Positions 6,078-36,000 of a stretch of 64,000 nucleotides of DNA are shown here, piece after piece. Below the pieces are notes generated by a model that saw nothing but the letters and a program-made list of their open reading frames with translations, searched no databases and was not told where the DNA came from. Positions within the stretch are counted from its first letter, which is position 1, and the number at the start of each line of letters is the position of its first letter. This DNA comes from an uncultured Anaerolineales bacterium. GTDB taxonomy: Bacteria > Chloroflexota > Anaerolineae > CG2-30-64-16. The position numbers and the translations under genes were made by a program. The DNA is taken from positions 31,007 to 95,006 of the forward strand of contig CAZKEF010000017.1 of NCBI GenBank assembly GCA_964551735.1, given 5' to 3'.

Positions 6078-6112
6078 CATATCGCACGGTTTGGGCTATC
6101 CTACAACTTGTC

Positions 6113-7201: not shown

Positions 7202-7340
7202 CGGAGCACCCTGAGCGGAGCCGGGTAGGGCTCCGGCGGAGTCGAAGGGTGCAGAGCGGTCGTCGCGCAAGGCCGCATCCTTCGACTGGTGATCATTTGT
7301 CAAGTAGGTTAGTTCGTAGACCCGCTCAGGATGCTTGCTC
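7202..7340. repeat. MITE-like element E1 with terminal inverted repeats containing CCGCTCAGG(A/G)TGCT core and an internal hairpin (gtcgaagggtgc...gcatccttcgac)
   Basis: Left end gagcaccctgagcgg is inverted copy of right end ccgctcaggatgcttgctc; reverse complement of E1 aligns along its length with element E2 at 8850-9050. Confidence 0.45.
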
Positions 7341-7388
7341 CTTTTCCAAACAAGCTGCTTGTCGCTTTGGATTCTAGTCGGAGTTCTA

Positions 7389-8828: not shown

Positions 8829-8849
8829 GTTGCCTTACAGCAAGGAACT

Positions 8850-9050
8850 CCCTTATGTCACGGCTTTGCCGTGAGCGGGTTAACGACTCAAAGCTCATTA
8901 CGGCAAATGTCCAGCGAAGCATCTATCAGGCCGAAGCTTCTCTTGCACTGCGACGAGACCCTTCGCTGGAATCGCGCCGCAACGCACCTCACGGGACGGA
9001 CCCGCTCAGGGTGACAGAAGCAAGTTTCGCGGTATTGCGTTGTCTTTGCT
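8850..9050. repeat. MITE-like element E2, inverted relative to E1, in 5' UTR of ATPase operon
   Basis: cgtgagcgggttaacgactcaa ... ccagcgaag...cttcgctgg hairpin ... gacccgctcagggtgacagaagcaag aligns with reverse complement of E1. Confidence 0.4.
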
Positions 9051-9063
9051 AAGGAGCGTCATC

Positions 9064-10602
9064 ATGTTTGCCACCAAGACGCCGTGGCGCCAGCAGATGC
9101 CGGAGTTCCTCCAGTTCCTGGAGGCCGACCTCGGGCATCCCGTCCGCCTGCACGAAGAGGTGCTGGGCTACCACCTCTACTTCCTTGACCTGTCCGATTG
9201 GAAGCTGCGCTTCTCCGATCGCACCCCGGTGATCTGGGTGACAGCCAACGACCTGGCGGCCATGTCGGTCCGCGAGCTGGCCCAGAGCCTGGCCGACGTG
9301 GTGCGCGCCCGCAGCCTGGCCGAGCGCAACCCCATCGTCGCGCTGCCGGGGCCGGGCGTGGAGCTGCACACGCTGATCAGGACCGCGTACCTGCCGCTGC
9401 TGATCCTCGACCAGGACGCGCAGCGGGCGGTGCGCGAGTCGCGGCGCCCCTCCGGCGAGCTGCTGGATCGGCTGAGCGCCCAGCTCGACCTGTCGCTGCT
9501 GACCCCTTACGAGACCAGCAAGCCCGTCACCGGCTCGCGCTTCTTCGGCCGCGAGTTCGAGATCCGGCGCATCCTCCAGTCCAACGACACCAACTTCGCC
9601 ATCATGGGCATCCGGCGCATCGGCAAGACCTCGCTCATGCGGGAGATCGAGCGCCAGCTCCGCAACCAGGCGCAGGATGGCGGCGACGAGAACGCGCAGG
9701 AGCGCATCCTTTTCATGGATTGCAGCGCGCTGAGCTCGCCCGCCGGCTTCGTCCAAGAGATCGTGCGCAAGCTGCGGCCGCAAGAGCTCACCCGGTTGTC
9801 CAGCAAGCAGTATCCCATCTTCTTCCCCGACTTCCTGGAGCGCATGGCGCAGCGCTACGGCGGGCCGGTGGTGTTCTTCCTGGACGAGTTCGACAAGGTG
9901 CTCACCTGGCACTACGAAGATGACACCCTGCTGAACGCGCTGCGCGCGTCCAGCAACCAGGGGCACTCCCGCTACATCGTCGGCGGATTCCGCGAAGTGA
10001 TGCGCGCGTTCTCGGACCTGGAATCGCCGCTGTACAACTTCGCCCGGCCCATCCGCCTGAAGGAGTTCAGCCGCGAGCAGGCGGCCGGCCTGATCTTGGG
10101 CCCGCTGGAGCGGTTGGGGGTGCGCTTCGAACGGCGCAACGATGTGGTCAACCGCATCTTCGACGAGACCGCGGGCCAGCCCAACCTGGTGCAGTTCTAT
10201 TGCAGCATCCTGGTGGAGCGGCTGGATCGGGAGGGCGTGCGCGTTGTTGCGCCGGAGAGCCTGTTCGACGTCTACACCAACGACGACTTCCGCGCGTTCG
10301 TGCTCAGCACCTTCATGGACAACACCACCCATCTGGAAAAGGCCATCGTCTTCGCGGTCATGGCCGACATGGACGCGGAGATGCCGTTCAGCGTCAAGGC
10401 GATTGACGACGCGTTGGAGCGCCGTGGCGTCGAGGTGCCGCTTTCGGACCTGGACCTGGCGTGCCGCAACCTGGAGCTGGCCGGCACCCTCACCGCCCGC
10501 GGCCCGCTCTACCGCTTCGCCACCCCCGTCTTCCCGCGCATGTTGAACGAGAACTATGATGTGGGGTATTTGTTCAAGAAGGTGGTGCAGGAGGGGATTT
10601 GA
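9064..10602 (+). CDS. AAA+ ATPase of the Arch_ATPase (PF01637-like) type with C-terminal winged-helix-like region
   Basis: ATG at 9064 preceded by AAGGAG; FFGREFEIRRIL then Walker A GIRRIGKTS, Walker B VVFFLDEFD; TTGA stop/start overlap with next gene. Confidence 0.6.
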   Translation: MFATKTPWRQQMPEFLQFLEADLGHPVRLHEEVLGYHLYFLDLSDWKLRFSDRTPVIWVTANDLAAMSVRELAQSLADVVRARSLAERNPIVALPGPGVELHTLIRTAYLPLLILDQDAQRAVRESRRPSGELLDRLSAQLDLSLLTPYETSKPVTGSRFFGREFEIRRILQSNDTNFAIMGIRRIGKTSLMREIERQLRNQAQDGGDENAQERILFMDCSALSSPAGFVQEIVRKLRPQELTRLSSKQYPIFFPDFLERMAQRYGGPVVFFLDEFDKVLTWHYEDDTLLNALRASSNQGHSRYIVGGFREVMRAFSDLESPLYNFARPIRLKEFSREQAAGLILGPLERLGVRFERRNDVVNRIFDETAGQPNLVQFYCSILVERLDREGVRVVAPESLFDVYTNDDFRAFVLSTFMDNTTHLEKAIVFAVMADMDAEMPFSVKAIDDALERRGVEVPLSDLDLACRNLELAGTLTARGPLYRFATPVFPRMLNENYDVGYLFKKVVQEGI

Positions 10603-13600
10603 GCAATAGTGTCTCTTCCTGGCAGATTATTTCCTGCACAGACACCGCGTCCTTCAAACGCGTGCGCGTCCGCGACGACGCGCGCATCCAGGCCGTGGTG
10701 CGCCACCTGCAGGCGGATGAGTGCGTGGCGCTGTTGGGGCCGCCTCTCAGCGAGAAAAGCCACCTGCTGCACGACATCGCGGACGCGCTGCGGGCCACCG
10801 AGCGCTTCCTGCCGCTCTACCTGGACCTCTGGCGCGCCAACTCGGAGGACGAGGCGGTCTTCTTCACCAGCGTGGCCCGGCTGATCGCGGACGCGCTGGC
10901 CGCGGATCCGCTGCGCCGGGGTGCGGTGGCGCCGGTGGAAGGGGTGGCCGACCCGCGCGACTTTCAACGTTTTCTGACGGAACGCGCCGGCCGCAATGGC
11001 GCGTCCCCGCCGGCCGGCGGCCTGAACCTGGCGCTGCTGATTGACCACCTGCAGGCGCTGCCGCATGACCTGGTCCACAGCCTGCTGCTGGCGCTCCGTT
11101 CCACCTACATGGAGCGCGAGGCGGACGCGCCGCATCAGGTGGTGGCCGTGGTGGCCGGCGGCATGAACCTGGTCGGCCTCTCCACCGGGCCCACCTCCCC
11201 CTTCAACATCGCCAAACCGGTGGTGGCCGCGCCGCTCACCGAGGCCCAGAGCCGCGCGCTGGCCGAGGCCAGCCTGGCGGCCGCAGGCTGCCACGCCTCG
11301 GCCCAGGGGCTGGCGCGGCTGCTCGCCTGGGCTGGGGGCGACCGCTACCTGCTGCCCCGCCTGTGCGCGTGGAGCGCCGCGCTGGTGCAAGACTATCGCC
11401 GCCCGGTGGTCACCTGCCCCGTGGTCGAGCGCGCGGCCGAGCAGGTCTGGCGCGCAGCCGAGATCTTGCCCCCCGTCCGCGAAGCCATCCGCATGATCGA
11501 AGAAGATCCGGACAGCATGCTGGACATCCTGCACCTGCTGGATCACGGCGCGCTGCCCCGCGCCCGGGCCCGGCAGATGATCACCCGCACCGGCGCCGAC
11601 CGGCTCCAGCTCTCCGGCGCGGTCACGCTGGCCGAGGGGTGCTACCTGCTGATCAACCAGGCGTACCGGCTGGCGCTGGCCGAGCACTTCACCACCGAGC
11701 GCGTCGGCCACGTCCTGCGCATTGCCGGCCGCTGGGAGGAGGCGATCCAGTACCTGGCGCCGAGGTTGGCGGTCGAGCAGGGGAGCAGGGGAGAGGGGGA
11801 GCAGGGGAGAGGGGGAACGGGCGACGCAGCACGCAGCGTTCAATCCGAAATTCGCAATTCACAATCCGCAATCCATTCCGCCCGCCCCCAACTCCTCGAA
11901 GCCATCGTCCAGTCGCTGTATGCAACCGATTCGGTCGAGCAGGGATGCGAGACCCTGGCGAACGGCCTGCGGCTGGGTTTCGGGCTGGCGCAGGTCTCGA
12001 TCTACCTGGCGAACCCCGCACAGGGCCGCCTGGACCTGGCTTACCCGCCCGCGCGCGCCACCGGCCCCATCGGCCACCAATCTACCAATCCCCAATCTAC
12101 CAATCCCCAATCTACCGCCTCCGTTGACCTGAACGACCCGGCCTGCGTCGAGGCGCAGACGTACCATTACGGCAACTATGCGCTGCGCGGCACGGCCGAC
12201 GACGCGCGGCTGGTGGCGGCCCTGGCCTCGCAGAACCGGCCGCTGGGCGTGGTCACGGTGGAACACTACATCCAGGCCCGCGACCCGCACACCCTCCCCG
12301 ATGAGCTGCCCGACCTGCTGGGCTTCCTGCACCACGCGGCCGGCGCGCTGGAGAACGTGATCTTCCGGGCCGCGTACCGCGCCATCGGCCAGGCTGTGCT
12401 GGACGCCCGCGCGCTGCAGCCCACGGTCGAACGCGTGCTGAGCGCGGTCTGCGATGCCCTGGGCAGCCACTATGCCGTCCTCTACCTGGTGGACGACACG
12501 GGGCGGACGCTGGAGATGGCGGCCGGCGTGGGCCGGCCGGTCACGCCGGCGTGGCAGGCGGCGGCCCGGTTCTCGCTGGCGGGCCGGCACCCGGCCGCGG
12601 CCGCGCTGCGCGACCAGCGCCTGCAATCCGTGCGCGGCACTGCGGACGGGCCGGACGCGCCCCTGATGGAGCGATTGGGGCTGCACAAGCACACCCGCGT
12701 CTTCCTGCCGTTGGCCGCGGCCAGCGAGGCGCTGGGCACGCTGGAGCTCGGTTACGCGGCCGGCGCGCGGCTCCGCCTGACCGAAGCGGCCCGGCGCACC
12801 TACACCGCGTTCGCCAACCAGGTCGCCATCGGCGTCCACAACATGCAGCTCCTGCGCCGCACCGACGAAGCGCTGACCCGCAAGATGGCCGAGATCTCCG
12901 TGGGCCGCGAGATCCAGCTCAGCCTGCTGCCGAGGTCATGCCCGGCCGTGCCCGGCTGGGACTTCGCCGCGCTCTACCAGGCCGCGCGCATCGTCGGCGG
13001 CGACTTCTACGATTTTTGCGAATTACCCGGCCAGCCCCAGCGGCTGGGCATCGTGATCGCGGACGTCGCGGACAAGGGGGTGCCCGCGGCGCTGTTCATG
13101 GCCCTCAGCCGCACGGTGATCCGCACGGTGGCGCTGAGCGGCCGCGGCCCGGCCGCCGCGCTGATGCGGGCCAACGACGTGATCATGAACGACAGCCAGG
13201 CCGAGCTGTTCCTGAGCGCGATCTACGCGGTGCTGGAGCCCGAAACCGGCCGGCTGACCTACGCCAACGCGGGCCACAACCGGCCGCTGTGGGTTCACGC
13301 CGGGGACGGCACGGTGACCGAGCTGGATCAGCCCGGCATCGTGCTGGGCGCGTTCGAGCACATCGCGCTGACGGAAGGGCAGATCGATCTGGCGGCCGGG
13401 GACGTGGTGGTGTTCTACACCGACGGCATCAACGAGGCGATCAACGCGGACGGCGAGCAGTTCGGCGACGACCGGTTGCGCGACGCCGTGGCTGCGGCCG
13501 CAGCGGGGGGTACGGCGCAGGACGTGCTGACCGCCATCACTGCCGCGCTGGCCGCGTTCGTCGGGGAGACGGAGCAGGCGGATGATGTGACGGGGGTGGT

Positions 13601-13616
13601 GGTGAGGCGGGGGTAG
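10599..13616 (+). CDS. multidomain signalling phosphatase: degenerate P-loop NTPase-like N-domain + GAF + PP2C/SpoIIE serine phosphatase
   Basis: Probable TTG start overlapping upstream stop; N-domain has degenerate Walker A (GPPLSEKSH) and Walker B-like LALLIDH; C-terminus has SpoIIE/PP2C motifs (GIVIADVADKGVPAALFMA ... FYTDGINEA); carries in-frame repeat insertions at 11778-11878 and 12077-12116. Confidence 0.6.
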   Translation: MSNSVSSWQIISCTDTASFKRVRVRDDARIQAVVRHLQADECVALLGPPLSEKSHLLHDIADALRATERFLPLYLDLWRANSEDEAVFFTSVARLIADALAADPLRRGAVAPVEGVADPRDFQRFLTERAGRNGASPPAGGLNLALLIDHLQALPHDLVHSLLLALRSTYMEREADAPHQVVAVVAGGMNLVGLSTGPTSPFNIAKPVVAAPLTEAQSRALAEASLAAAGCHASAQGLARLLAWAGGDRYLLPRLCAWSAALVQDYRRPVVTCPVVERAAEQVWRAAEILPPVREAIRMIEEDPDSMLDILHLLDHGALPRARARQMITRTGADRLQLSGAVTLAEGCYLLINQAYRLALAEHFTTERVGHVLRIAGRWEEAIQYLAPRLAVEQGSRGEGEQGRGGTGDAARSVQSEIRNSQSAIHSARPQLLEAIVQSLYATDSVEQGCETLANGLRLGFGLAQVSIYLANPAQGRLDLAYPPARATGPIGHQSTNPQSTNPQSTASVDLNDPACVEAQTYHYGNYALRGTADDARLVAALASQNRPLGVVTVEHYIQARDPHTLPDELPDLLGFLHHAAGALENVIFRAAYRAIGQAVLDARALQPTVERVLSAVCDALGSHYAVLYLVDDTGRTLEMAAGVGRPVTPAWQAAARFSLAGRHPAAAALRDQRLQSVRGTADGPDAPLMERLGLHKHTRVFLPLAAASEALGTLELGYAAGARLRLTEAARRTYTAFANQVAIGVHNMQLLRRTDEALTRKMAEISVGREIQLSLLPRSCPAVPGWDFAALYQAARIVGGDFYDFCELPGQPQRLGIVIADVADKGVPAALFMALSRTVIRTVALSGRGPAAALMRANDVIMNDSQAELFLSAIYAVLEPETGRLTYANAGHNRPLWVHAGDGTVTELDQPGIVLGAFEHIALTEGQIDLAAGDVVVFYTDGINEAINADGEQFGDDRLRDAVAAAAAGGTAQDVLTAITAALAAFVGETEQADDVTGVVVRRG
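11778..11878. repeat. composite minisatellite (GGGGAGCA/GGGGAGAG octamers then CGCAATYC-type units) in-frame in PP2C gene
   Basis: gcaggggagcaggggagagggggagcaggggagaggggga...caatccgaaattcgcaattcacaatccgcaatccattcc; encodes QGSRGEGEQGRGGTGD...QSEIRNSQSAIHS. Confidence 0.55.
12077..12116. repeat. tandem repeat CCAATCTACCAATCCC x2.5, in-frame in PP2C gene
   Basis: caccaatctaccaatccccaatctaccaatccccaatctacc; encodes HQSTNPQSTNPQST. Confidence 0.55.
13565..13616. repeat. direct repeat copy 1 (3' end of PP2C gene)
   Basis: gggagacggagcaggcggatgatgtgacgggggtggtggtgaggcggggg; near-identical copy at 15207-15258. Confidence 0.55.
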
Positions 13617-13706
13617 GGCGGTCGCCGGATCTGCGGTTTGACAGCGCCGAAGATCTGGTTACAGTATAAGCAGCTTAGACTAAGCTACTTAGGCGAAAGA
13701 GATACG

Positions 13707-15158
13707 ATGCCTCATAAGTTTGTCGGCCGGGGGCGCGATGTTGCCGAGCTGAACGCGATTTTGGCTCGTCCAGGCGCGCAGCTCGTCCTGGTTTACGGCC
13801 GCCGGCGGGTGGGCAAAACCACGCTGCTCCTGGAATGGGCCGCGCAAACCGGCCGGCCCCTCATCTACTGGGTCGCGGCTCGCGATACGCCCGCGCTGCT
13901 CCGCCAGGGCTTCATGCGGAGCGTGTGGCAATGGGCGCACCCCGGCAGCCAGGCGGTCCCCCGCTTCGAGTCCTGGCGTGAGGTCTTCGCGGCAACAGCC
14001 GACCTGATCGGGGATCGGGCTGCGATCCTGATCCTGGACGAGTTCTCCTACGCCGCCGAATCCGACCCTGCCCTGCCCTCGCACTTACAGGCAGCCTGGG
14101 ATCATCTGTTCAAAGCGCGCAACCTCGCCATTGTGCTGGCCGGCTCGCACATCGGCTTGATGGTGGAGCAAATGAGCTACAACGCGCCGCTGTATGGCCG
14201 ATTCACCGCGCAGCTTCCCGTGGGGCCGCTGGCCTTCCCCGCCCTGGCTGACTTCTTGCCCCATTACACCGCGGCGGAACGCGTTGCCGCCTACGCCGTT
14301 GTCGGCGGCATCCCGGCCTACCTGGAGCAGTTCGACCCGGCCCAAAGCTTGAGCGCCAATCTGAAGGGCCTCTTCATGCGGCGCACCGGCCTCTTCCGCA
14401 GCGAGCCGTTCATCCTGATCGGCGATGTGATCCGGCGCGAAACCCAAACCTACGAAGCGATCCTCAAGGCCATCGCCGCGGGCCAGCGCACCCCCAGCGA
14501 CATCGGCGCCATGGTGGATCGCACCAGCGGGTATCTCAGCCCCTACCTGAAGAACCTGGAGGCGCTGCACCTGGTGGAACGCCGCGTCCCGGCCACGGTG
14601 CCGCGCGACCAGCGCCAAGCCAGCCGCAACAGCCGGTACCACCTGGCGGATCCCTATTTGCGCTTCTATTTCCGCTTCATCGCGCCCAACCTCGACCTGG
14701 TGGAGCAAGAGCTATCCGACATGTTGTGGGAGCGCATCGGCGAGCAATTCCGCGCGTTCGTCGGCGCCACCGCGTTCGAAGGCCTGTGCCGTGAGTGGGT
14801 TCGTGTCCAGGCGCGAGCCCGGCGACTGCCCCTGACCCCGGAAGCGATCGGCAGCCACTGGTCGGCCAATGCGCAAGTGGATGTGGTCGCGATCAACTGG
14901 CACGACCGGGCGATCCTGCTGGGCGAGTGCAAGTGGGGGGAGCAACCGGCCGACCGGGGCGTGATCCGGGAATTGGTGGCCAAGGCGCCGAAGGTCGTGC
15001 CGGCCGCGGGCGAGGGCGAGACCGCATGGCAGGTACACTACGCCTTCTTTGCGCGCGCCGGCTTCACCGATGCCGCCCGCGCTGAGGCGGTGGGGCTGGG
15101 CGCGCGGTTGGTGGATCTGGAGAGGTTGGATGGGGATTTGCGGCGCAGAGTAGGGTGA
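13707..15158 (+). CDS. AAA+ ATPase (Arch_ATPase N-domain) with C-terminal DUF234
   Basis: ATG at 13707 after GAAAGAG RBS; Walker A VYGRRRVGKTT, Walker B ILILDEFS; C-terminal region resembles DUF234 of archaeal-type ATPases. Confidence 0.6.
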   Translation: MPHKFVGRGRDVAELNAILARPGAQLVLVYGRRRVGKTTLLLEWAAQTGRPLIYWVAARDTPALLRQGFMRSVWQWAHPGSQAVPRFESWREVFAATADLIGDRAAILILDEFSYAAESDPALPSHLQAAWDHLFKARNLAIVLAGSHIGLMVEQMSYNAPLYGRFTAQLPVGPLAFPALADFLPHYTAAERVAAYAVVGGIPAYLEQFDPAQSLSANLKGLFMRRTGLFRSEPFILIGDVIRRETQTYEAILKAIAAGQRTPSDIGAMVDRTSGYLSPYLKNLEALHLVERRVPATVPRDQRQASRNSRYHLADPYLRFYFRFIAPNLDLVEQELSDMLWERIGEQFRAFVGATAFEGLCREWVRVQARARRLPLTPEAIGSHWSANAQVDVVAINWHDRAILLGECKWGEQPADRGVIRELVAKAPKVVPAAGEGETAWQVHYAFFARAGFTDAARAEAVGLGARLVDLERLDGDLRRRVG

Positions 15159-15206
15159 GGCTGGCGCGAGTTGCTATCCCTCGCTGATACGCTGGCCGGG
15201 TTCGCA

Positions 15207-15258
15207 GAGGCGAGACGGAGCAGGCGGATAATGTGACGGGGGTGGTGGTGGGGAGACG
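15207..15258. repeat. direct repeat copy 2 (intergenic, at left edge of low-GC island)
   Basis: ggcgagacggagcaggcggataatgtgacgggggtggtggtggggagacgggg, about 90% identical to 13565-13616. Confidence 0.55.
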
Positions 15259-15308: not shown

Positions 15309-16064
15309 TCAAGGATAGCATTGAGCGATAAAAGCTTTGTCTGTTTCGGACAGTTCGCTGTTCCATGCTATCTCTGTCCCGTCAAGCGTCCAGCGCTTGG
15401 GTATTGGATACACCATAATCGACTTCGGGTCAAACTGAGTGAATTGAGTCTGAGTAAACATATACCTGGCAAGCACGTTCTCACGAATAGTATACTCATC
15501 CCAGTTGTTCGGTGGGCCAGACAGGTCTTTTATCACAGCTTCTTCATTCCATTTCATACCAGAAGCAGGACTCTGGTGTTCATGAATTAAGCCCAGAGCA
15601 TGACCGAACTCATGCAGCACCACCCGCGAAAACTGTGCATCCACAGAGTCAGGTTTCAACCCACTAAGGTTCATTGTAGGTTGACTAAGCGGGACATCAA
15701 CAACCTCCATACCAACATAGGATGACGAAGGCTGATCGGACCTAAACGAGATGCGGATGTCCGCATTTGGGTAATAATCGTAACGGAATTCGAATCTGAG
15801 GTTCGCGTACTGAAGCCACTGCCTGGCGCAGACTTCTACCTGCTTTCGGACGCTCATGCTGCCGCCAATGAAGGTCACTCTTAGAAGTCGCCCAGGCTTC
15901 CAAAACCAGTTTTCGAGCCCGGCAGCCTGCAGAGGTGAAAGCATATTTCGCGGGTTTTCCGAAATCGCAAGTTGGCGTGCAAGGACATAGTCCGCATGAT
16001 GCACTGAGCGGTCAATACAAATGGACATTGATAACCTAGACATAGCACTTCTCACTTCCCCCAT
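15309..16064 (-). CDS. astacin-like metzincin zinc metalloprotease, no signal peptide
   Basis: HEFGHALGLIHEH (HExxHxxGxxHE astacin-type zinc site) and downstream Met-turn SIMVYP (astacin SxMHY); N-terminus hydrophilic, so predicted cytoplasmic. Confidence 0.55.
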   Translation of the reverse strand: MGEVRSAMSRLSMSICIDRSVHHADYVLARQLAISENPRNMLSPLQAAGLENWFWKPGRLLRVTFIGGSMSVRKQVEVCARQWLQYANLRFEFRYDYYPNADIRISFRSDQPSSSYVGMEVVDVPLSQPTMNLSGLKPDSVDAQFSRVVLHEFGHALGLIHEHQSPASGMKWNEEAVIKDLSGPPNNWDEYTIRENVLARYMFTQTQFTQFDPKSIMVYPIPKRWTLDGTEIAWNSELSETDKAFIAQCYP

Positions 16065-16121
16065 CCCATCGAATGTCGTGCCGAGAATGAGCTTCTTCTT
16101 CTGTGTATCTGGGTCTTCACA

Positions 16122-17297
16122 TCAACGATAGGGTAAGTCATCCCTGATTCGAGTTAGGATTGCTGTGATTGGAATACCTTCATTGCCCCTGATATAGGGT
16201 AGCAATGAAGGGCTAGGTGCTTCCGTTTCGCCATGATGCAGCGCAATAATGTCGCCATCCTTATCAAATACAGGTGCGCCGGAAGCGCCGTGCTCAGTAT
16301 GAGTCAAGTACTGCATCCGTCTCCTAGTAGTATCTATGATCAAGTTGTGGAATAAGGCGATCTTCTGGGGCTTGTATCCAGGGTACTGGACAACGAAAGC
16401 CACGCCATACAGTTTGGGAGTCTTCGGGACGAGTCGCACATATCCTATCTCCGGCATGTCTCCAGGTCGTCCCTCGATTCTTAGTAATGAAAAGTCAAGG
16501 TTCTCAGTATCACTTGAACGTACCACATGCTCAACCCAATACTCATACCCCTGCTCGAGAACTCCCTTGCTGCTATATCTGAACCTAAAGCGAACGCGAT
16601 ATGCACGCTGTTTAGCGTTCTTTGGCACAACATGGTTGCAGGTCAAGACTAGATCGGGAGCAACGGCGAATCCTGTCCCAACTGACCTTCCGTCGGGTTC
16701 TTCGATGCGGCAAGTGGCACTGCTGATTCGGCCTACCGACTCTGAAAAGGCAACTTCTAGGAGGTTGACCGTCTGTTGCCATTGACTAAGCATCGTATCT
16801 GGGGCCAATGAGCCATACCACGGGTAAGGAGCACGAGGTTGGTGCCAACCCAGATCAAAGAGCCTATCAGTGGGAGAGATCACTGGAAGAGGGAGTTTGA
16901 CTAGATTGGCAACCTTCTCTCTGAACCGAATCTCGCTGAAATCCTCTTTGAATATCACATCGCCATGATAATCTATCCTGACAGCAGTAGTTAGTTCGTA
17001 ATCTTCGCGCCGCGGGCAAAGACGTGCTCCGTCGGTCACAACCACAACCTTGATACCCCGGTTCACCGCTTTATCAATCATTTCGATGCAGTCTTGACGA
17101 ATCCGCGTATGATTATCTTCCCGATCGTTCAATTGTACATTAAGTACGGCAAGGTCAAGGTGCTCGGAGCGAATCAGACTAATGGCCTGAGATCGCTCGC
17201 TTTCACACAGGATTTCATGACCTAACGGCTCAAGAGCGTCATGAAGCTTATCCATGCGCCATTGTTGGTCATTATCAATGATTAGAATACGCGCCAT
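16122..17297 (-). CDS. response-regulator receiver domain fused to trypsin-like (S1-family) serine protease
   Basis: REC features: IIDND acidic pocket, D in HLDLAVLNV, VVVVTDG, K in IFKEDF. Protease triad: LTCNHVV (His), NLDFSLLRI (Asp), GASGAPVF (GDSGGP-like Ser). Confidence 0.6.
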   Translation of the reverse strand: MARILIIDNDQQWRMDKLHDALEPLGHEILCESERSQAISLIRSEHLDLAVLNVQLNDREDNHTRIRQDCIEMIDKAVNRGIKVVVVTDGARLCPRREDYELTTAVRIDYHGDVIFKEDFSEIRFREKVANLVKLPLPVISPTDRLFDLGWHQPRAPYPWYGSLAPDTMLSQWQQTVNLLEVAFSESVGRISSATCRIEEPDGRSVGTGFAVAPDLVLTCNHVVPKNAKQRAYRVRFRFRYSSKGVLEQGYEYWVEHVVRSSDTENLDFSLLRIEGRPGDMPEIGYVRLVPKTPKLYGVAFVVQYPGYKPQKIALFHNLIIDTTRRRMQYLTHTEHGASGAPVFDKDGDIIALHHGETEAPSPSLLPYIRGNEGIPITAILTRIRDDLPYR

Positions 17298-17330
17298 ATC
17301 AATCTCCGTCAGTTGTTGTCACAAAAAACG

Positions 17331-18152
17331 CTATGATACGACGCGGAGGCCGCTGAGTGCATTCCGTATTGCATCCCGATATCTAACTGGGGAGAACTTA
17401 TGCTTATCCACATAGTAGCACGCCCCATAGTTTCGATATGACTCGCGTATATGCACTGGCGTACCATGTCCGGAGCTAACAATAACCTGAGTAAACCTTC
17501 CCCGTGCATGGTCCAATTCTCTAAGTAGACTCATCAAATACAACCCTTCATAATTCGACTCATCATTTTCAGCTAATCTCAGATCACAAATAACCAGATC
17601 GTAACTTTGCTCCGTAAGGCTCTTCTCCGCTGCAGTGCGACTCGTAGCCGTGTCTATCCTAGCCATTGTTGGTAACGAATCCACCAAGGTCTTAAGCCAG
17701 GTTGGATCATCATCAATTACCAAGACAGTGCCGCTAGAAGTCACTAGAAGTTCACGTCTGTTTGTAACAAGGCGCACAGCGGCGAAAGACTGATCGACCA
17801 GAGCTACGAGTTGATCCTCGTCGTATGGTTTGCCTACACAGTCAAAGGCGCCTTGCTGAAAGACAGATCCCAACTCCTCCAGAGGAGGGTCAACGGCATA
17901 CAGTACAACAGCAGGTATACAGCGATCGGATAACGCGCTCAAGAACCAACGATCCTGAGTTAATGTGTCAAAGTCAACCAGTGTTATAAGATGCTGCAGT
18001 GCGTCGCCTAGGGCATTGAGAATTGCTCGGGCGCTATCTGGCGACGAGGCTGTGGCAACTTGATAGTCTGCCTCGCGCAGTGTAGTGCTGGCGAAATCCA
18101 GCCAATCCTTCTCAGAGTCAACGATCAGCACTTGACTGGCTTCCGTGTTCAT
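17331..18152 (-). CDS. tandem receiver-domain (REC-REC) response regulator without output domain
   Basis: Two REC units: VLIVDSEKD...LVDFD...K and VLVIDDDP...DLVICDLRL...VIVSSG...K. Confidence 0.6.
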   Translation of the reverse strand: MNTEASQVLIVDSEKDWLDFASTTLREADYQVATASSPDSARAILNALGDALQHLITLVDFDTLTQDRWFLSALSDRCIPAVVLYAVDPPLEELGSVFQQGAFDCVGKPYDEDQLVALVDQSFAAVRLVTNRRELLVTSSGTVLVIDDDPTWLKTLVDSLPTMARIDTATSRTAAEKSLTEQSYDLVICDLRLAENDESNYEGLYLMSLLRELDHARGRFTQVIVSSGHGTPVHIRESYRNYGACYYVDKHKFSPVRYRDAIRNALSGLRVVS

Positions 18153-18154
18153 AT

Positions 18155-26220: not shown

Positions 26221-28648
26221 CCTTCTCCTGTTTCGCGCAAGGCAGCTTCACCACGAAGGCAGTCCCGATGAACATCAGGCTTGCTGCCAGGCTCAGGCTC
26301 CCGCCCGTCATCTCGACCAGGTTCCGGCTAATATAAAGACCCAGACCGGCGCCATCGGGGCGTGTGGTGTATCCCATTTCGAATACCCGTTCGTGAAGTT
26401 GTCCGTGAATTCCGGGGCCACTGTCCATCACGGCAATTTCCAGGGGACGTCCTGTGAAACCCTCGATACGTCGTGTTTGAACTATGACCTGCCGAACACG
26501 CGCCAAATCAGCCTGTTCGCCCTGTTCTGCATGGAGTTGTCCAAAGAACTGCATCTTCAATTCGATCTGTTGGATGGAGTTAAGTATCAAATTGGTCAGT
26601 ATTTGCTCAAGTTGCGGCCGGATGGCCAATGCCTTTGGGAGTCCAGCGGAAAGATCTGTGGCAAACATGATTCCTGCAGCGCGCGCCCTGTGTTCCAATT
26701 GACGCAGCACGCCGGTAACCGCTTCATTGACATTCACCAGATCGAGCTCGTGTCGAGCCAGGCGTGTATAACCCTTCACCAAATCCGAAAGACTTCCTTG
26801 CTGTTGTGCAAGCCTATGAACTGAGTCTGCGATCTTTTGTCCCCGTGCCTGATCTGGAGCGGCCTGTGCCTTGTCGCAATATCCCTGTAAGAGCTTTGTC
26901 TCCCAGTTGAGGCCATCGAGCTTGTGGTTCAATTCATGCACCAGGTTCGCCAAGAGTTCACCTCGAGAACAGTGTTCCTGATAACCGCGCATGTGATCGA
27001 GGAGTATCGCGTTCTCAATTGTAGTTGCAAGAAGCCCTGCCCCCAATCGTGCCCGATCGACCTGTTCACGCCCCTCCCTGCTTTTTGTGGAGAAGCCCAG
27101 GATGCGTTCGTCAAAGAGAAAGAGGGCGTGTCGAGTCAGCCGTCCAGGAATCAGGAGCGGCAACCCAAAACAGGAGCGATAACGCAAGTCTGGAAACAGA
27201 TTGCGAAGGCGTGCTTCCTCATAACGAAGCGCCTCAGTGAACCGAAATTCCTGTTCTTCCTCGATCACATTACGTGCCGGACTGTGATATAGGGTGCCCA
27301 CTGCCCTTTCCGCTATCCCCGGAGGTACTGGCGGATCCGCGGCCAGAATCGAAACGATCTTGCTGGCTGTATCCAACTCCAACACCATCGCCTGGCTGAT
27401 CTGGATGGTCTCCCGTAATGTCATCAACGCGTCCAACAAACGCTCATGCAGCGACCGTTTCGCCAGGGATTTAAGGCCAACTCGTTCCAAGAACCCAGAT
27501 TGACTGCCACCAGGCGACGAGCGCGATGCTATGACTCTGGTCCAATAACCCGTACATAACCTGTGCACCCAATCAACGATTTCTTCGTCGGTCTTATCTA
27601 TCAAAGGATCCGTGGGCTTTTCGATCTCCGCAACAACAGGCAACTCAGACCCGTTGATGATGACCGGTGCTTCTGCTCTGTTGAGTTCCGGGTCGTGCGA
27701 TGGCGGGGCGAAATCCAAATCCAGCTTTTCGACGCGCATCCTGCTGACAAACAGCACTGGTAGACCAGGCCTGGCAGTACGCAGCCGAGTGGCCACAGCC
27801 GGTCCAAGCTCACCATCCAAATACACATCAACGATAGCTAATCCGTAGGAATGGCCCCCTCTAACTAGCTCTAGGGCCTGATCCCCGGAACTCAAACCAT
27901 CGACCTCAACGCCGAACTCTCTCTTCAGGGCCTCACAGATACGTTCTCGATCCTGCACATCATCATCCACCACCAAGAAACGATGAGGCCGTGGAATAGG
28001 AGGCAAAAACCGATACGTTTCGGTTAGCCCTTCTTGGTCAGATGAACCGTCCTGATGAGGCAAAGAGGTTGGCTGGGGTTCGGGAGTACGGAGCAAATCT
28101 GCCAGCGCGTGACTCTGCTCCTGAACGCTGGCGAGGCGCCTAAGCTCACCCCACAGGCTGAGGTCAATTTGCCTCAGCGTGGGACTCATCTTCGTTACGA
28201 GGCCGCGCACCCGGTCCCCGATCCAGAGCAGATCCTCCACCCCCAAATCGCGCAAGATGGGGAGATCATCTCGCCAAACTACCGCATCAATCCCCGGTTC
28301 CAACTGGACAAAAGCGCGATCATGTTGGACGTTTACCACCTCGCCTTCAACGCTTTGACCAATTCGATAGCGATACCTCACACCAACATCGTCCCAAGGG
28401 TCAGCGGCCTGGCGCAGGCTCAGAAACACCAACCCACGCTGCGGATCATCTTCCAAGACAATTGCATCGAATTCCGAGCCTACCTGGGGCATTGTTGGCA
28501 TAACGCCGATGCGCCGATCCCACGACAATTCTTTCCGCCGGATGAAACCGGCGCGATTGCTCTTGAGAATCTTGACCCAGACACCCGTGTCTCGGATTTG
28601 GGCAACAGCAACTCGCACGCGAGTTGATGGTAACATAAATGACGCCAT
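26198..28648 (-). CDS. hybrid sensor histidine kinase: two N-terminal S1-like RNA-binding domains + REC + GAF + HisKA + HATPase_c
   Basis: S1-like OB folds: VRVAVAQIRDTGVWVKILKSNRAGFIRRKELSW... and IGQSVEGEVVNVQHDRAFVQLEPGIDAVVWRDDL...IGDRVRGLVTKM; REC (FLVVDDDV...LAIVDVYL); H-box HELNHKL; ATP lid VMDSGPGI...GLGLYISRNLVEMTGGSL. Confidence 0.6.
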   Translation of the reverse strand: MASFMLPSTRVRVAVAQIRDTGVWVKILKSNRAGFIRRKELSWDRRIGVMPTMPQVGSEFDAIVLEDDPQRGLVFLSLRQAADPWDDVGVRYRYRIGQSVEGEVVNVQHDRAFVQLEPGIDAVVWRDDLPILRDLGVEDLLWIGDRVRGLVTKMSPTLRQIDLSLWGELRRLASVQEQSHALADLLRTPEPQPTSLPHQDGSSDQEGLTETYRFLPPIPRPHRFLVVDDDVQDRERICEALKREFGVEVDGLSSGDQALELVRGGHSYGLAIVDVYLDGELGPAVATRLRTARPGLPVLFVSRMRVEKLDLDFAPPSHDPELNRAEAPVIINGSELPVVAEIEKPTDPLIDKTDEEIVDWVHRLCTGYWTRVIASRSSPGGSQSGFLERVGLKSLAKRSLHERLLDALMTLRETIQISQAMVLELDTASKIVSILAADPPVPPGIAERAVGTLYHSPARNVIEEEQEFRFTEALRYEEARLRNLFPDLRYRSCFGLPLLIPGRLTRHALFLFDERILGFSTKSREGREQVDRARLGAGLLATTIENAILLDHMRGYQEHCSRGELLANLVHELNHKLDGLNWETKLLQGYCDKAQAAPDQARGQKIADSVHRLAQQQGSLSDLVKGYTRLARHELDLVNVNEAVTGVLRQLEHRARAAGIMFATDLSAGLPKALAIRPQLEQILTNLILNSIQQIELKMQFFGQLHAEQGEQADLARVRQVIVQTRRIEGFTGRPLEIAVMDSGPGIHGQLHERVFEMGYTTRPDGAGLGLYISRNLVEMTGGSLSLAASLMFIGTAFVVKLPCAKQEKDEHHEQD

Positions 28649-28819: not shown

Positions 28820-29062
28820 ATGGCACTAGACATGTGGTTCAAGGAAGATATCAGAAACGTACTCCTATCACTCAACCTGGTTTCAGCAGCCACAAGTCGG
28901 TGGGTTCAAGACGCACGCTTGGATGCCTATCGTCACGGTTATGAAGAGGCGATCGCTGCGGTGGCGCTGGCTTTTGGCCTACCGCCACGTTCGGTGCTCG
29001 GAAAAGATAGAGAGCAAGGCAGCGAATACGACGTGTCTTGGGACCTCAAACTACTGCCCTGA
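28820..29062 (+). CDS. small hypothetical protein (80 aa), divergent from island operon
   Basis: Good RBS GGAGG 7 nt upstream of ATG; no recognisable motif. Confidence 0.3.
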   Translation: MALDMWFKEDIRNVLLSLNLVSAATSRWVQDARLDAYRHGYEEAIAAVALAFGLPPRSVLGKDREQGSEYDVSWDLKLLP

Positions 29063-33071: not shown

Positions 33072-36000
33072 TCAAAAAGGGGACCCCGTCACCGGCAGCC
33101 ACGCAGGCGGCGGGCTGACGTCGGCCCGGAAGCGCGGGAGCAACCGGTAGCCGCCGACCCACGGCGGGCCATCGAACGCGTACTGCCCCACCACCCCCTG
33201 CGCAACCCAGAATTCACCGAGGTTGACATACGGCCGCCGCCAGGGCAGGTCGCCGGGGAAGTAGATGCGCGCGGGGCCGCTGCCATCGTCCAACACCAGC
33301 GCCTGGCGCTCGAACTTCGTAACGCGGCCGACGATCAGCACGAGTTGGCCCTGGTGCGCCTCGCCCATGTCGCCGGTGGCGATGCGGGCAGCGATCGGGA
33401 GTTGGCCGGCGCCCAGGCGGGTCAGGTAGCCGGGGTTGGGGACCGAAAGCTCGGCCTCGCCGCGGAAGTCGCGCGTCCAGCCGGTGGCCTGCACCACGTC
33501 ACCCACTGCCAGGGCCGGGTAATCGCCGCTCCGTAGGTAGACCTTGATGCCGCCGGTCGCATCCTGGAGGTAGATGGTGCGCGGGATCAGGCCGGGCGGG
33601 TAGACCACCGCGCCGGTCACCGTGACGCGCGTGTCGTCCGGCGCGGCCAGGGCCGCGGCAATGGCGGCAGCACCGGACATGGGCGGTGCGCCGCCGCCTG
33701 CGCCTGGCACAGGGGTTGGCCGCAGACGGTTGGGCTGCCCCACGGTCACGTCGCACTCCGTGGTCCAATAGCCGCCGCCGTCCACGCTGCGGCAGAAGCT
33801 GCGATCCTCGCCCGGGCCATTGGTGTACGCGAACTCGTCGGCGGTGACCCCGTCGGGCCGGCGCAGGATGACGTGGTCACGCCGGTCGCCCAGGGACAGG
33901 CCGGTGGCGCGGCGGAAGAGGAGCAGGAAGCTGCGCGGCCAGATCACGGTGCCCTGGGGGATGGTGTACGTCTTGGTGTCGTCCAGCACGGCCCACCCGC
34001 CCAGGTTGGCCGGCGCCGTGCCCGCGTGGTACAGCTCAATCCACTCGTCGTTGAAGCTGGCCTGGCCGTTGCCATCCCAGTCTCCGGCGACCGGGTCCGG
34101 CAGAATCTCGTTCAGCGTGATGCCGGCCGGGATGGGCGTGGCCGTGGCCGTCGCGGTGGGCGTGGGGGTTGGGGTGGGCGCGATGTTCGGGCCTCCCGGC
34201 GACGGCGCGTAGGTGTCGGTCCACGCGCCGGCGCCGTCCACCGTCCGGCTGTACGAGCGGTCGGGCTGCGTCTTGCTGTAGGCGAACGCATCCACCTCGA
34301 CGACATCCGGGCCCAGCAGGCGCACCGTGTCGCTGGTGTTGTTCAGTACGAGGCCGCTTTGTGCCTGAAACACCAGCAGGAACGCGCCCGGCGCCAGGGT
34401 CACGCCTGCCGGGAAGACGTAGGGGGTGCTGCCGCCGTCGGCGCTGTCGTCCAGCAGCCAGCCGGCCAGGTCTACCGCCGCCGCGCTCCGATTGTAGACC
34501 TCGATCCATTCGTCGCCAGCATCGGCTGTGCCATCCCCGTTCCAGTCCACCGCGCTGGGGGCGGGCAGGAACTCGTTCAGCCGGAGCGCATCGGGGTCGT
34601 AGATGACCGGCGTCGCGGTGGGCGTCGGCGTCGGCGCCAGGTTGGGGCCGCCCGGCGACGGTGGGTAGCTGTCCGTCCACGCGCCCGTCCCATCCACGGC
34701 CCGGCTGTAGCTGCCGTCAGGCCGCGTGGTGGTGTAGGAGAAGTCATCCACCTCCGCCCCGTCCGGGCCGAGCAGGCGGACGGTATCGGTGTCGTTGTTC
34801 AGCGCCAGGCCGCTCTGAGTGCGGTAGATGACCAGGAAGCCGCCGGGAGCCAGGGATGCGCTGGCCGGGAAGACAAACGGCTTGCTGCCGCCGTCGGCGA
34901 TATCGTCCAGCGCCCAGCCGGCCAGGTTGACCGGGGTCAGGCCCAGGTTGTACAGCTCGATCCACTCATCGGCCGCGTCCGCCGTGCCGTCGCCGTCCCA
35001 GTCCACCGCGCCTGGCGCGGGCAGGAACTCGTTGAGGCGGATCGCGTCAGGGTCGTAGATGACCGGTGTCGCGGTAGGCGTCGGGGTCGGCGGGACGGTC
35101 CAGGTGGGCGTCGTGGTGGGTGTGCGCGTCGACGTCGCGGTGCGAGTCGCGGTGGGCGTGCGCGTCAGCGTCGGGGTGCGGGTCGCGGTGGGCGTGCGCG
35201 TCAGCGTCGGGGTGTAAGTCAGTGTCGGCGTGAATGTGGGTGTCGGCGCGGGAGCGATGTTTGGGCCGCCCGGTGACGGCGGGTAGGCGTCAGTCCATAC
35301 GCCGGCGCCATCCACGGTCCGGCTGTAGCTGGTGTCCCGCTTGGGGCCGCTGTACGCGAAGGTGTCCACCGCGCTGCCGTCCGGGGCCAAAAGCCGCGCG
35401 GTGTCCGCGTCCTGGTTCAGCGCGACCTTGGTCTGCGAGCGGTAGAAGACCCGGAAGCCGCCCGGCGCCAGCCAGGTGTCCGCGGGAAAGACGTAGGGCT
35501 TGCTGCCGCCTTCGATGTCATCCAGCGCCCAGCCGCCCAGGTCCATCGCTTCGGCGCCCAGGTTATAGATCTCGATCCACTCATCTTCCGCATCCAGGGT
35601 CCCGTTCCCGTCCCAGTCCACGTCATAGGGGTAGGGCAAGACCTCGTTGAGGCGCACAGCGGACAGCGGGGTGGGTGGGGCCGTCGCTGCGGGTGTGCCG
35701 GTCGGCGTGGGGGTGCCCGTCACCGGCAGGACAGTCGGCGTGTGCGACAGCGTAGCCGTCGGCAAGCCGGTGGGCGTGGCGGTGTCGGTGGCCGCGGGTG
35801 TGCCGGATGGCGTGGCCGTGCCGGTCGCGGTGGGGATCGGGGTCAGGCTCGCGGTCGCCGTCGGCGTGACGGTGGGCGTGCCGGGGTGGGGAGCTGTGGG
35901 TGTATGGGTGTGTGTGGATGTCGGTGTTGGGGTCAACATTGTGCCCGGCGCGCCCGGGTTGGGTATCGCCTGCGCCAGCCAATCGTCGCGCGTGTCGGTG

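Follow-up and report, generated by a model that had tools for sequence, protein, structure and literature searches.

Introduction

Detocs, whose anti-phage activity has been shown experimentally, consists of the kinase DtcA, the stand-alone receiver DtcB and the receiver-effector DtcC, and DtcB has been proposed to buffer stray phosphate (bioRxiv 10.1101/2023.01.24.525353). Here we analyze a 64,000-nucleotide (nt) stretch of DNA from an uncultured Anaerolineales bacterium (contig CAZKEF010000017.1, positions 31,007 to 95,006; hereafter the window), in which a paralog of the catalytic fragment of alanyl-tRNA synthetase (AlaRS) is encoded among two histidine kinases, several receivers and two proteases. 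This locus and its relatives resemble Detocs in having a cytoplasmic sensor kinase, a receiver (REC) protein without an output domain, a receiver fused to a toxic enzyme, and an effector domain that can be swapped. However, Detocs senses through a TPR region and acts mainly through a PNP ATP nucleosidase, neither of which is detected here by Pfam, whereas the sensor side here is made of the AlaRS-like protein and one to 11 GAF domains, often accompanied by a second kinase with S1 domains and a REC-GAF protein, and the effectors are proteases, CHAT, TIR, Schlafen and TCAD9 kinase domains, among others. Beyond the effector domains, similarity to the PADLOC models is found at the level of the receivers only, in the candidate system PDC-M60B/C.

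A second point of comparison is the set of nucleoside triphosphate (NTP)-dependent conflict systems of multicellular prokaryotes with their effector-associated domains (EADs), in which receivers are stated to occur without histidine kinases (Kaur, Burroughs, Iyer, Aravind, eLife 2020/2021; PMC7159879, PMC8195603). Those systems share with the present one a repertoire of trypsin-like, CHAT, caspase, TIR, TCAD9, EAD7, EAD8 and EAD11 domains and a bias toward filamentous or multicellular bacteria. They are built on STAND, MoxR-vWA or GTPase-type NTPases, whereas the core here is a His-Asp phosphorelay combined with an aminoacyl-tRNA synthetase paralog; Pfam finds no core NTPase of these three types in the low-GC island that holds the locus, and an nSTAND1 gene (9040-10602) is located beyond the island, on the opposite strand. 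The trypsin-like domain encoded here also matches those of known defense proteases (the DRT type XI reverse transcriptase-protease, Lamassu LmuA and Avs1b). In those proteins it is part of a fusion with a reverse transcriptase, SMC-type or STAND module, but the protease here is carried on a receiver-like domain (on EAD8 in L001, a related contig from another sample), downstream of a phosphorelay.

For the AlaRS-like protein itself, the nearest precedent is AcmF, a truncated AlaRS-like alanyl transferase of ascamycin biosynthesis that moves alanine from Ala-tRNA-Ala onto adenosine sulfamate and whose pocket Glu is essential (PMC12945691). Judged from AcmF's published description, both proteins comprise the aminoacylation and tRNA-recognition domains only, both have Glu in place of Asp at the alpha-amino-binding position, and both have lost the Asn/Asp pair that reads G3:U70. 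AcmF differs in having Gln at the position equivalent to N212, where Asn is retained here (N211, 66/66 species), and in belonging to an antibiotic gene cluster with a resistant AlaRS, whereas kinases, receivers and effectors adjoin the gene described here, which is always linked or fused to a GAF kinase and encodes a family-specific Cys-rich insert. Canonical AlaRS fragments (E. coli residues 1-441, PDB 3HXU; Aquifex, 1RIQ) share the fold and the domain pair but not five key residues, which are changed here as V214L, D235E, G237V, N303G and D400K (UniProt numbering for the last two). An AlaRS-like domain is also listed in a review table of cyanobacterial orthocaspase domain architectures, which fits a link to death effectors.

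A first-pass annotation of the window stated that no described system was known to have this gene combination. Our searches agree: the searchable literature, outside which many subscription papers lie, yielded no description of AlaRS combined with a histidine kinase and GAF domains, and searches pairing AlaRS or a tRNA synthetase with receiver, CHAT or conflict systems did not turn up this system either. We classify the locus as a probable two-component-type conflict system with an unprecedented sensor.

Results

An AlaRS Catalytic Fragment with a Remodeled Site

Exact-sequence look-ups of the window proteins returned nothing on record, and the analysis was therefore built on homologs. The AlaRS-like protein (Table 1) covers positions 2-436 of the 552-position Pfam profile tRNA-synt_2c, which corresponds to the aminoacylation and tRNA-recognition domains without the editing and C-Ala domains, and it scores 194.6 bits against the NCBIfam alaS equivalog (TIGR00344), for which the cut-off is 457. 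Its sequence matches AlaRS fragments in the PDB with an E-value of about 1e-39. An AlphaFold model calculated from a 60-sequence alignment has a predicted local distance difference test score (pLDDT) of 89.5 and a predicted template modeling score (pTM) of 0.88, and in the PDB it most resembles AlaRS catalytic fragments (template modeling scores of 0.75-0.82, 27-28% identity). The family is large and its members measure 440-470 amino acids (aa); when clustered at 50%, some tens of AlaRS-like clusters are obtained with scores of ~300-1150 bits, while canonical AlaRS (~880 aa) scores ~300 bits or less.

The functions of the relevant E. coli AlaRS residues are well established (see also PMC12945691), including the reading of the G3:U70 base pair by N303 and D400. 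We aligned the AlaRS-like proteins to E. coli AlaRS and tabulated the key positions in 66 species. Seven positions are invariant in 66/66 (E. coli equivalents in parentheses): R65 (R69), W162 (W170), E208 (E209), N211 (N212), E235 (D235), V237 (G237) and R242 (the motif-3 Arg). The motif-2 and motif-3 arginines are kept in the family, V214 of E. coli is replaced by Leu (L213) invariantly or nearly so, and a deletion of four residues removes the AGGK loop that contains K73. At the two positions that read G3:U70 (N303 and D400), the family has Gly in 65/66 species (G306) and Lys in 56/66 (K405). Residues 177-203 form a Cys-rich insert that is specific to the family and replaces the corresponding loop of E. 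coli AlaRS; its cysteines C193, C197, C201 and C203 are conserved in 64-65 of the 66 species, and the insert may be a zinc or redox site.

The alignment shows a predicted site that keeps its nucleotide-binding residues, has an amino-acid pocket that is altered and, in its altered form, invariant, and has altered acceptor-stem readers. A site that is changed and yet strictly invariant suggests that the pocket still binds a ligand or catalyzes a reaction, though no longer as that of an alanine:tRNA-Ala ligase. The protein had been introduced in the first-pass annotation as a tRNA-recognizing synthetase paralog; the AlaRS catalytic-fragment fold is borne out, but the G3:U70 readers have been replaced and the pocket has been remodeled, so that tRNA recognition is conjectural.

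The AlaRS-Like Protein Is Linked to a Multi-GAF Kinase by Adjacency and Fusion

Kinase 2, encoded directly downstream of the AlaRS-like gene, is the conserved core kinase of the system, and its H-box His and its N, G1 and G2 boxes are conserved across 59 homologs. In several organisms the two proteins are joined in one chain. An AlaRS-like domain is followed by five GAF domains in L057/P0277 and by five GAF domains and HATPase_c in P0273 (1718 aa), whereas P0260 and P0261 contain two AlaRS-like domains together with GAF domains and HATPase_c. In these fusions the AlaRS-like domain is located at the N-terminus, the position at which kinases carry their sensors. Because of these natural fusions, which constitute the strongest evidence, we infer that the AlaRS-like protein is the input module of kinase 2. 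RNA-linked inputs on the sensor side, namely the two S1 domains and the AlaRS paralog, were part of the first-pass proposal, and the fusions support this placement.

P0259 is a tandem AlaRS-like pair, and in L061 two AlaRS-like genes are found side by side. The tandems (P0259-P0261 and L061) hint at a dimeric or asymmetric sensor.

The GAF arrays of the family contain up to 11 domains that are mutually divergent, mostly with 35% identity or less, and the arrays are therefore old. Recent duplication of GAF domains, considered as a possible arms-race signal, was rejected on the same ground, since the domains are too divergent.

The Core Is Conserved and the Downstream Genes Are Swapped

In the L001 contig the ten same-strand genes of the window recur without a change of order; for nine of them the encoded proteins are 42-90% identical (Table 1). 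The tenth is the receiver gene, which encodes a single receiver (137 aa) in L001 versus REC-REC in the window, with no BLASTP match between the two. The identities indicate that the sensors are conserved while the output end diverges. In six further neighborhoods with precomputed Pfam annotation, the gene after the AlaRS-like gene encodes a GAF kinase; small receivers come next, and the effector behind them differs from one neighborhood to the next.

For a broader census, simple open reading frame (ORF) calling and domain models derived from the window's domains were applied to 80 loci from species-level genome representatives. The counts that follow are approximate. The AlaRS-like gene is present in 82 non-redundant loci, in 64 of which a downstream gene is found on the same strand, and this next gene carries GAF domains in 61/64. 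A HATPase kinase is found no more than three genes away in 52 loci and a receiver no more than five away in 45; in the remaining loci the kinase and receiver counts are cut by contig ends. Typically the AlaRS-like gene precedes a GAFn kinase, after which come one or two receivers without an output domain and then one or two receiver-effectors. Together, the gene order in L001 and the 61/64 adjacency argue that the arrangement is not due to chance, and the proposal that the genes form one conserved functional neighborhood is upheld by both. These comparisons show a core of AlaRS-like protein, multi-GAF kinase and one or two output-less receivers that is conserved in at least 60 species, and they show that the genes found downstream of it are exchanged from one locus to another.

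The 80 genome loci comprise 53 from Chloroflexota, 4 from Moduliflexus, 5 from filamentous cyanobacteria (Phormidium/Spirulina/Leptolyngbyaceae), 5 from the Thiothrix group, 2 from Saprospiraceae, 1 from Desulfobacteraceae and a few others. These host taxa are largely filamentous.

The Window Combines Two Sensor-Kinase Modules

Upstream of the AlaRS-like gene, the window encodes a second kinase (kinase 1) and REC-GAF6, a receiver protein with six GAF domains that is the partner of kinase 1. Pfam detects two S1 stretches (1.7e-14), Response_reg (1.3e-9) and HATPase_c (7e-14) in kinase 1, residues 8-165 of which also give an rpsA-type match in NCBIfam. In 8 relatives the H-box His is retained, together with the N, G1 and G2 boxes. 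Kinase 1 is the best-conserved gene of the island, with 90% identity to L001, and its family is rare (13 proteins at E<=1e-20).

REC-GAF6 matches the N-terminal part of proteins that, in relatives, consist of a single REC-GAFn-kinase chain. When loci were scanned using the S1 kinase as anchor, the gene that follows it was found to begin with a receiver in 24/24 loci with a readable next gene and to be REC-GAFn in 21/24. In at least nine S1-kinase loci this next gene encodes one REC-GAFn-HATPase protein, which is followed by receivers or receiver proteins, and no AlaRS-like gene is present; L092, for example, has the S1 kinase and a REC-GAFn-kinase with a CHAT protein downstream and no AlaRS-like gene. 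The order REC-GAFn, AlaRS-like, GAFn kinase is found in eleven loci including the window, and in these the AlaRS-like gene occupies the point at which the single-chain REC-GAFn-kinase is split.

The S1 kinase and REC-GAF pair is thereby shown to be a separate upstream module that also exists alone. Since the S1 kinase module and the AlaRS-like module each occur alone, the window is a composite of two sensor-kinase modules with one effector set. The seven-gene system of the first-pass annotation is therefore not a fixed unit: two modules were combined, and the island contains more genes than seven.

Receivers and Effectors

We aligned the receivers of the window to CheY, taking the D57 position as the phosphate acceptor. 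Asp occupies this position in the receivers of kinase 1 and REC-GAF6 (the latter with Arg at the position of CheY K109) and in the second receiver of REC-REC, whose D-D-D-S-K signature is complete. For the first receiver of REC-REC the alignment is ambiguous, with an Asp two residues off the aligned position. With HATPase_c and invariant boxes in both kinases and an acceptor Asp in three of the window's receivers, the phosphorelay that had been proposed for these genes is well supported. REC-REC itself probably accepts phosphate, buffers it or acts as an adaptor. In nearly all loci one or two receivers without an output domain are found at the REC-REC position. The first of them often has Ser or Asn instead of the acceptor Asp and is followed by a second stand-alone receiver with Asp; this Ser/Asn first receiver after the kinase was seen in L021, L028-L030, L033, L036, L039 and L044, and also in L048, L054, L055, L060 and L088. 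The pseudo-receiver/receiver pair is conserved in those loci.

Effector 1 of the window is a trypsin-like serine protease. The Trypsin_2 match spans the full profile, and the motifs CNHVV, DFSLL and GASGAP, read by eye, supply the His, Asp and Ser of the catalytic triad in canonical order. The domain matches the PADLOC models RT-Protease_XI, LmuA and Avs1b with E-values of 5e-10 to 6e-5. Its N-terminus, which is weak in Pfam (E = 0.024) and was detected by a receiver model built here, is a predicted receiver-like pseudo-receiver: the window protein and its L001 ortholog have Asn at the acceptor position, as do 17/86 effector-fused receivers. The L001 ortholog carries an EAD8 adaptor domain (EAD8-Trypsin_2); no EAD domains were detected in the window's own proteins. 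Given the missing acceptor Asp, the protease is probably not phosphorylated directly and would be controlled through contact with a phosphorylated partner. The idea of receiver-controlled proteases thus stands as regards a receiver-like domain on the trypsin-like protease, but not as regards its phosphorylation site, which is Asn.

Effector 2 is a metzincin metalloprotease that scores 32.6 bits with Peptidase_M10 (cut-off 24) and 22.3 bits with Astacin, 0.2 below the cut-off of 22.5. The zinc site HExxHxxGxxHE is present as HEFGHALGLIHEH, and a SIMVY Met-turn is also visible. Among the loci examined, the metzincin was found only in the window and the L001 contig set, and it is sub-lineage-specific. 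The best NCBIfam match of the protein, at 1e-32, is "beta-glucuronidase AbsR1", a name that belongs to SCO6992 of Streptomyces coelicolor (PMC9705864). This assignment was rejected, as the score of 113 bits is far short of the 650-bit cut-off and the metzincin motifs are complete.

Proteases are only one kind of output. We clustered the proteins downstream of the core and ran Pfam on representatives, which gave 14 REC-CHAT, 9 REC-TCAD9 (APH-like kinase), 8 trypsin-type, 4 REC-Schlafen/AlbA_2, 3 REC-Metallophos (calcineurin-like phosphoesterase), 3 REC-TIR and 2 REC-caspase (Peptidase_C14) effectors, along with adaptors containing EAD7, EAD8 or EAD11 and several unknowns. The effector is REC-TIR in a Moduliflexus locus, CHAT/DUF900 in one from Desulfonema limicola and Metallophos in one from Anaerolineae; L008 has both REC-Schlafen and REC-CHAT, and L010 has HD-CE/EAD7/REC. 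In PADLOC, the TIR domain matches ThsB at 3e-19 and the caspase gives a match at 1e-15. Regulated proteolysis, which the first-pass annotation suggested as the answer of the system, is accordingly represented by two proteases in the window but is one of many interchangeable outputs.

In L014, L028, L033 and L048 the cluster ends with a multi-pass membrane protein of ~220 aa that is very similar among the four and belongs to no Pfam family. That this last gene might be a hidden metzincin was rejected, since the protein is a conserved multi-pass membrane protein without HExxH.

Locus Layout and Surroundings

The seven genes at 15309-28648 are all encoded on the minus strand, with intergenic gaps of 2, 33, 57, 62 and 66 nt (the last counted from the ATG of the AlaRS-like gene at 22827) and an overlap of 23 nt between the S1 kinase and REC-GAF genes (26198-26220). 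Their ORFs, strand and tight spacing are as first annotated, and nearly all of the domain calls were recovered with Pfam; the departures are a GAF domain in the S1 kinase, which Pfam does not call, its HisKA domain, which is barely detected (E = 0.12), and the weak protease receiver described above.

The genes occupy a low-GC island of ~18 kb (~15.3-33.0 kb) with sharp edges and ~50% GC versus 68% in the flanks. Besides the seven genes, the island contains four more (Table 1): two encode SPFH-type membrane proteins, one encodes a 278-aa protein, and the last is a small divergent ORF. The GC content of the system is lower than that of its flanks in 41/45 loci, by a median of 8 points (-8), in hosts whose flank GC ranges from 36% to 68%. 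Neighbors in related loci include BrnT/CopG, HEPN/nucleotidyltransferase, NACHT, nSTAND1 and serine recombinase genes. The low GC content and the toxin-antitoxin, STAND and recombinase neighbors point to mobile, non-essential cargo, not to a core developmental circuit. In the window, att-like direct repeats were sought at the island ends and none was found, and no recombinase family is present among the Pfam matches of the island genes or the flanking ORFs scanned.

Table 1. Genes of the low-GC island, with coordinates in the window and protein identity to the L001 orthologs.
Feature	Coordinates	Strand	Supporting match	Identity to L001
Effector 2, metzincin metalloprotease, 251 aa, no signal peptide	15309..16064	-	Peptidase_M10 9e-8, Astacin 1e-4	55%
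Effector 1, receiver-like domain (acceptor Asn) and trypsin-like serine protease, 391 aa	16122..17297	-	Trypsin_2 3e-19	42% (trypsin domain)
REC-REC, double receiver without output domain, 273 aa	17331..18152	-	Response_reg 9e-19, two stretches (Pfam)	
Kinase 2, five GAF domains, DHp and HATPase, 1075 aa	18155..21382	-	Pfam five GAF stretches, HATPase_c 4.4e-22	57% (five GAF domains in the window, three in L001)
AlaRS-like paralog, 460 aa from ATG (alternative TTG 22863)	21445..22827	-	tRNA-synt_2c 1e-57	77%
REC-GAF6, receiver and six GAF domains without output domain, 1108 aa	22894..26220	-	Response_reg 5e-16, six GAF stretches (Pfam)	78%
Kinase 1, S1-S1-receiver-(~250 aa uncalled)-DHp-HATPase, cytoplasmic	26198..28648	-	Pfam domains and H/N/G1/G2 boxes	90%
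Divergent ORF between accessory genes and kinase operon, 80 aa (MALDMWFKEDIRN...)	28820..29062	+	Counterpart in L001	
Accessory protein with one hydrophobic lipobox-like segment, 278 aa	29078..29914	-		52%
Accessory membrane protein with weak SPFH-like C-terminus, 448 aa	29889..31235	-	Band_7 E = 0.0045, sub-cut-off	50%
Accessory SPFH/Band-7 membrane protein at island upstream end, 473 aa	31290..32711	-	Pfam Band_7 3.7e-13	62%

Of the accessory proteins, the 448-aa membrane protein has a visible hydrophobic segment in mid-protein, and the 278-aa protein gave zero matches in searches of Pfam, NCBIfam and PADLOC. SPFH genes adjoin the system in 10/82 loci, on either side, which suggests a recurrent accessory link to the membrane. 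The 80-aa ORF is without a match in a Pfam scan; a similar ORF is found on the opposite strand of L001 (3749-3997) at the equivalent position, and the stretch of DNA aligned with L001 there is 78% identical by column overall.

On one side the island is flanked by plus-strand genes for an nSTAND1 NTPase, a GAF-SpoIIE (PP2C) phosphatase and an ATPase_2/DUF234 protein (9040-15158), and on the other side by genes for a giant repeat protein and RpoD. This RpoD shares 88-89% identity with proteins labeled Anaerolineae or Chloroflexi bacterium, which places the host among Chloroflexota of the Anaerolineae type. In L010, nSTAND1 and GAF-SpoIIE genes (4004-9425) are likewise located just upstream of the AlaRS-like gene, and this flank may be a recurring neighborhood or a second conflict system. 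A protein of 1409 aa encoded at 33072-37301 on the minus strand has several repeat modules of ~110 aa separated by long Pro/Thr-rich linkers; judged by eye, they resemble domains of the lamin-tail type. A 60-nt element (15190-15253) immediately beyond the end of the island has two ~90%-identical copies in L001 (17717-17773 and 18467-18528), where the copies flank a BrnT/CopG toxin-antitoxin cassette that is absent from the window.

Discussion

On balance, the locus is probably a cytoplasmic two-kinase His-Asp system, carried on a horizontally mobile low-GC island, that acts as a conflict or programmed-cell-death switch. Such a switch is suggested by the outputs, which are destructive enzymes, not transcription factors. 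We are much more confident that the genes form one conserved system in which the AlaRS-like protein is a kinase input than we are of the role in defense or programmed death, which we infer from gene content. The first-pass annotation had raised an abortive-infection, stress or developmental role, each of which would be a reading of the same gene content.

A mechanism can be outlined for the switch. The AlaRS-like protein would bind a ligand, candidates being an RNA or tRNA-like molecule, an aminoacyl-tRNA or an adenylate-type small molecule, and would switch kinase 2 on via the GAF array. Kinase 1 would receive an RNA-dependent input via its S1 domains and phosphorylate the receiver of REC-GAF6, which would act with kinase 2. 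The latter would phosphorylate the double receiver, which at rest may buffer stray phosphate as proposed for DtcB of Detocs. Once loaded, the double receiver would engage the pseudo-receiver of the trypsin-like protease and release proteolysis, with the metzincin as a second protease. The affected cell would be arrested or die, and the remainder of the filament would be protected.

A number of observations weigh against the proposed conflict or programmed-death switch. Neither the AlaRS-like protein nor either kinase matches a PADLOC defense model, and no AlaRS-like relative was found among 2.9 million viral contigs. Multi-GAF kinases and orphan receivers are common in ordinary Chloroflexota and cyanobacterial signaling, and the bias toward filamentous hosts may simply reflect phylogeny. 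The models used in the census were built from the same loci that they count, so its numbers are approximate. Activation of the protease, the last step, is conjectural, since its receiver-like domain scores weakly and has no acceptor Asp. A pattern scan for promoters and terminators returned sites that were fewer than, or no more than, those in shuffled sequence. No Rfam family was found in the window at gathering thresholds, nor in the island at E<=0.1, and ARAGORN found zero tRNA genes in the window. When ARAGORN was applied to 60 related loci, no tRNA was found inside the systems and an unrelated tRNA gene was nearby in five only. With no tRNA or Rfam RNA within the systems, there is no system-encoded RNA partner.

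The most serious alternative, though we regard it as unlikely, is that the locus serves physiological or developmental signaling and not immunity, monitoring translation, aminoacylation or a metabolic cue and remodeling or sacrificing cells in a starvation response, in filament breakage or in differentiation. GAF-kinase signaling is typical of developmental regulation in cyanobacteria and Chloroflexota. In favor of this alternative, the distribution is strongly skewed to filamentous lineages, self-monitoring would fit sensors built from S1 domains and a housekeeping translation enzyme, and the core is without a match in defense libraries and without viral copies. However, the effectors change between close relatives and are drawn from a conflict pool (TIR, CHAT, caspase, Schlafen, EADs, TCAD9); GC is consistently below that of the flanks, in the company of toxin-antitoxin, STAND and recombinase genes; and between the window and L001 the number of GAF domains and the effector sequences have diverged, while the sensors are 77-90% identical. 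These features are at odds with a developmental circuit.

Within the favored switch, we tentatively propose, as a possibility short of an expectation, that an AlaRS catalytic fragment was recruited as an innate-immune sensor or signal generator, acting via the GAF-array kinase on receiver-coupled death effectors. It would either read the state of tRNA, aminoacyl-tRNA or an invader's tRNA-like RNA, or make an aminoacyl-nucleotide messenger. Bacterial immunity or programmed cell death would then have a sensor of a new class, one concentrated in filamentous (multicellular) bacteria. The same system with the AlaRS-like protein strictly as a signal generator is a distinctly improbable variant. In it, an aminoacyl-nucleotide or a messenger of the dinucleotide-polyphosphate type would be read by the GAF domains, possibly after reverse transfer from aminoacyl-tRNA as in AcmF, with a logic like that of the cyclase/receptor pairs of CBASS and Thoeris. 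The strict invariance of both the nucleotide-binding residues and the remodeled pocket indicates an active site under selection, and the Asp-to-Glu change is common to AcmF, where the Glu is essential (PMC12945691), but N211 is kept at a position where AcmF has Gln. GAF domains are classical binders of small molecules and cyclic nucleotides and have been counted among nucleotide-binding domains (PMC7159879), yet up to 11 divergent GAF domains would be an odd receptor for one messenger, and the N-terminal kinase fusion fits a sensor at least as well.

It is very improbable that the locus consists of unrelated two-component genes and a stray synthetase fragment, or of several independent operons, without a common function. 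No promoter or terminator signal above chance marks a single transcript, and a 429-nt gap with the divergent ORF sets the upstream accessory genes apart; against this stand the gene order conserved in L001, the 61/64 AlaRS-like/GAF adjacency, the fusions, and gaps of 2-66 nt with one overlap, and synteny and fusions effectively refute this explanation. Hardly credible, finally, is a role of the AlaRS-like gene in an AcmF-type natural-product pathway for an aminoacyl nucleoside antibiotic, which would account for the truncated AlaRS architecture and the Asp-to-Glu change but was rejected because biosynthetic, resistance-AlaRS and export genes are lacking beside the system in the neighborhoods with Pfam gene tables, while other loci have the same signaling-type order and the invariant partners are a kinase and receivers.

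If the conflict or programmed-death switch is what these genes encode, they would represent a second, far more elaborate family beside Detocs, the only two-component defense shown experimentally. The death effectors described in multicellular bacteria by the Aravind group would be tied to a His-Asp phosphorelay, and the system would provide the first aminoacyl-tRNA synthetase paralog that serves as the input module of a histidine kinase, making it testable what the remodeled, conserved AlaRS site binds and how the kinase is switched. It would also help explain cell sacrifice in the filamentous bacteria of wastewater and sediment, such as Anaerolineae, Moduliflexus, Thiothrix and Phormidium.

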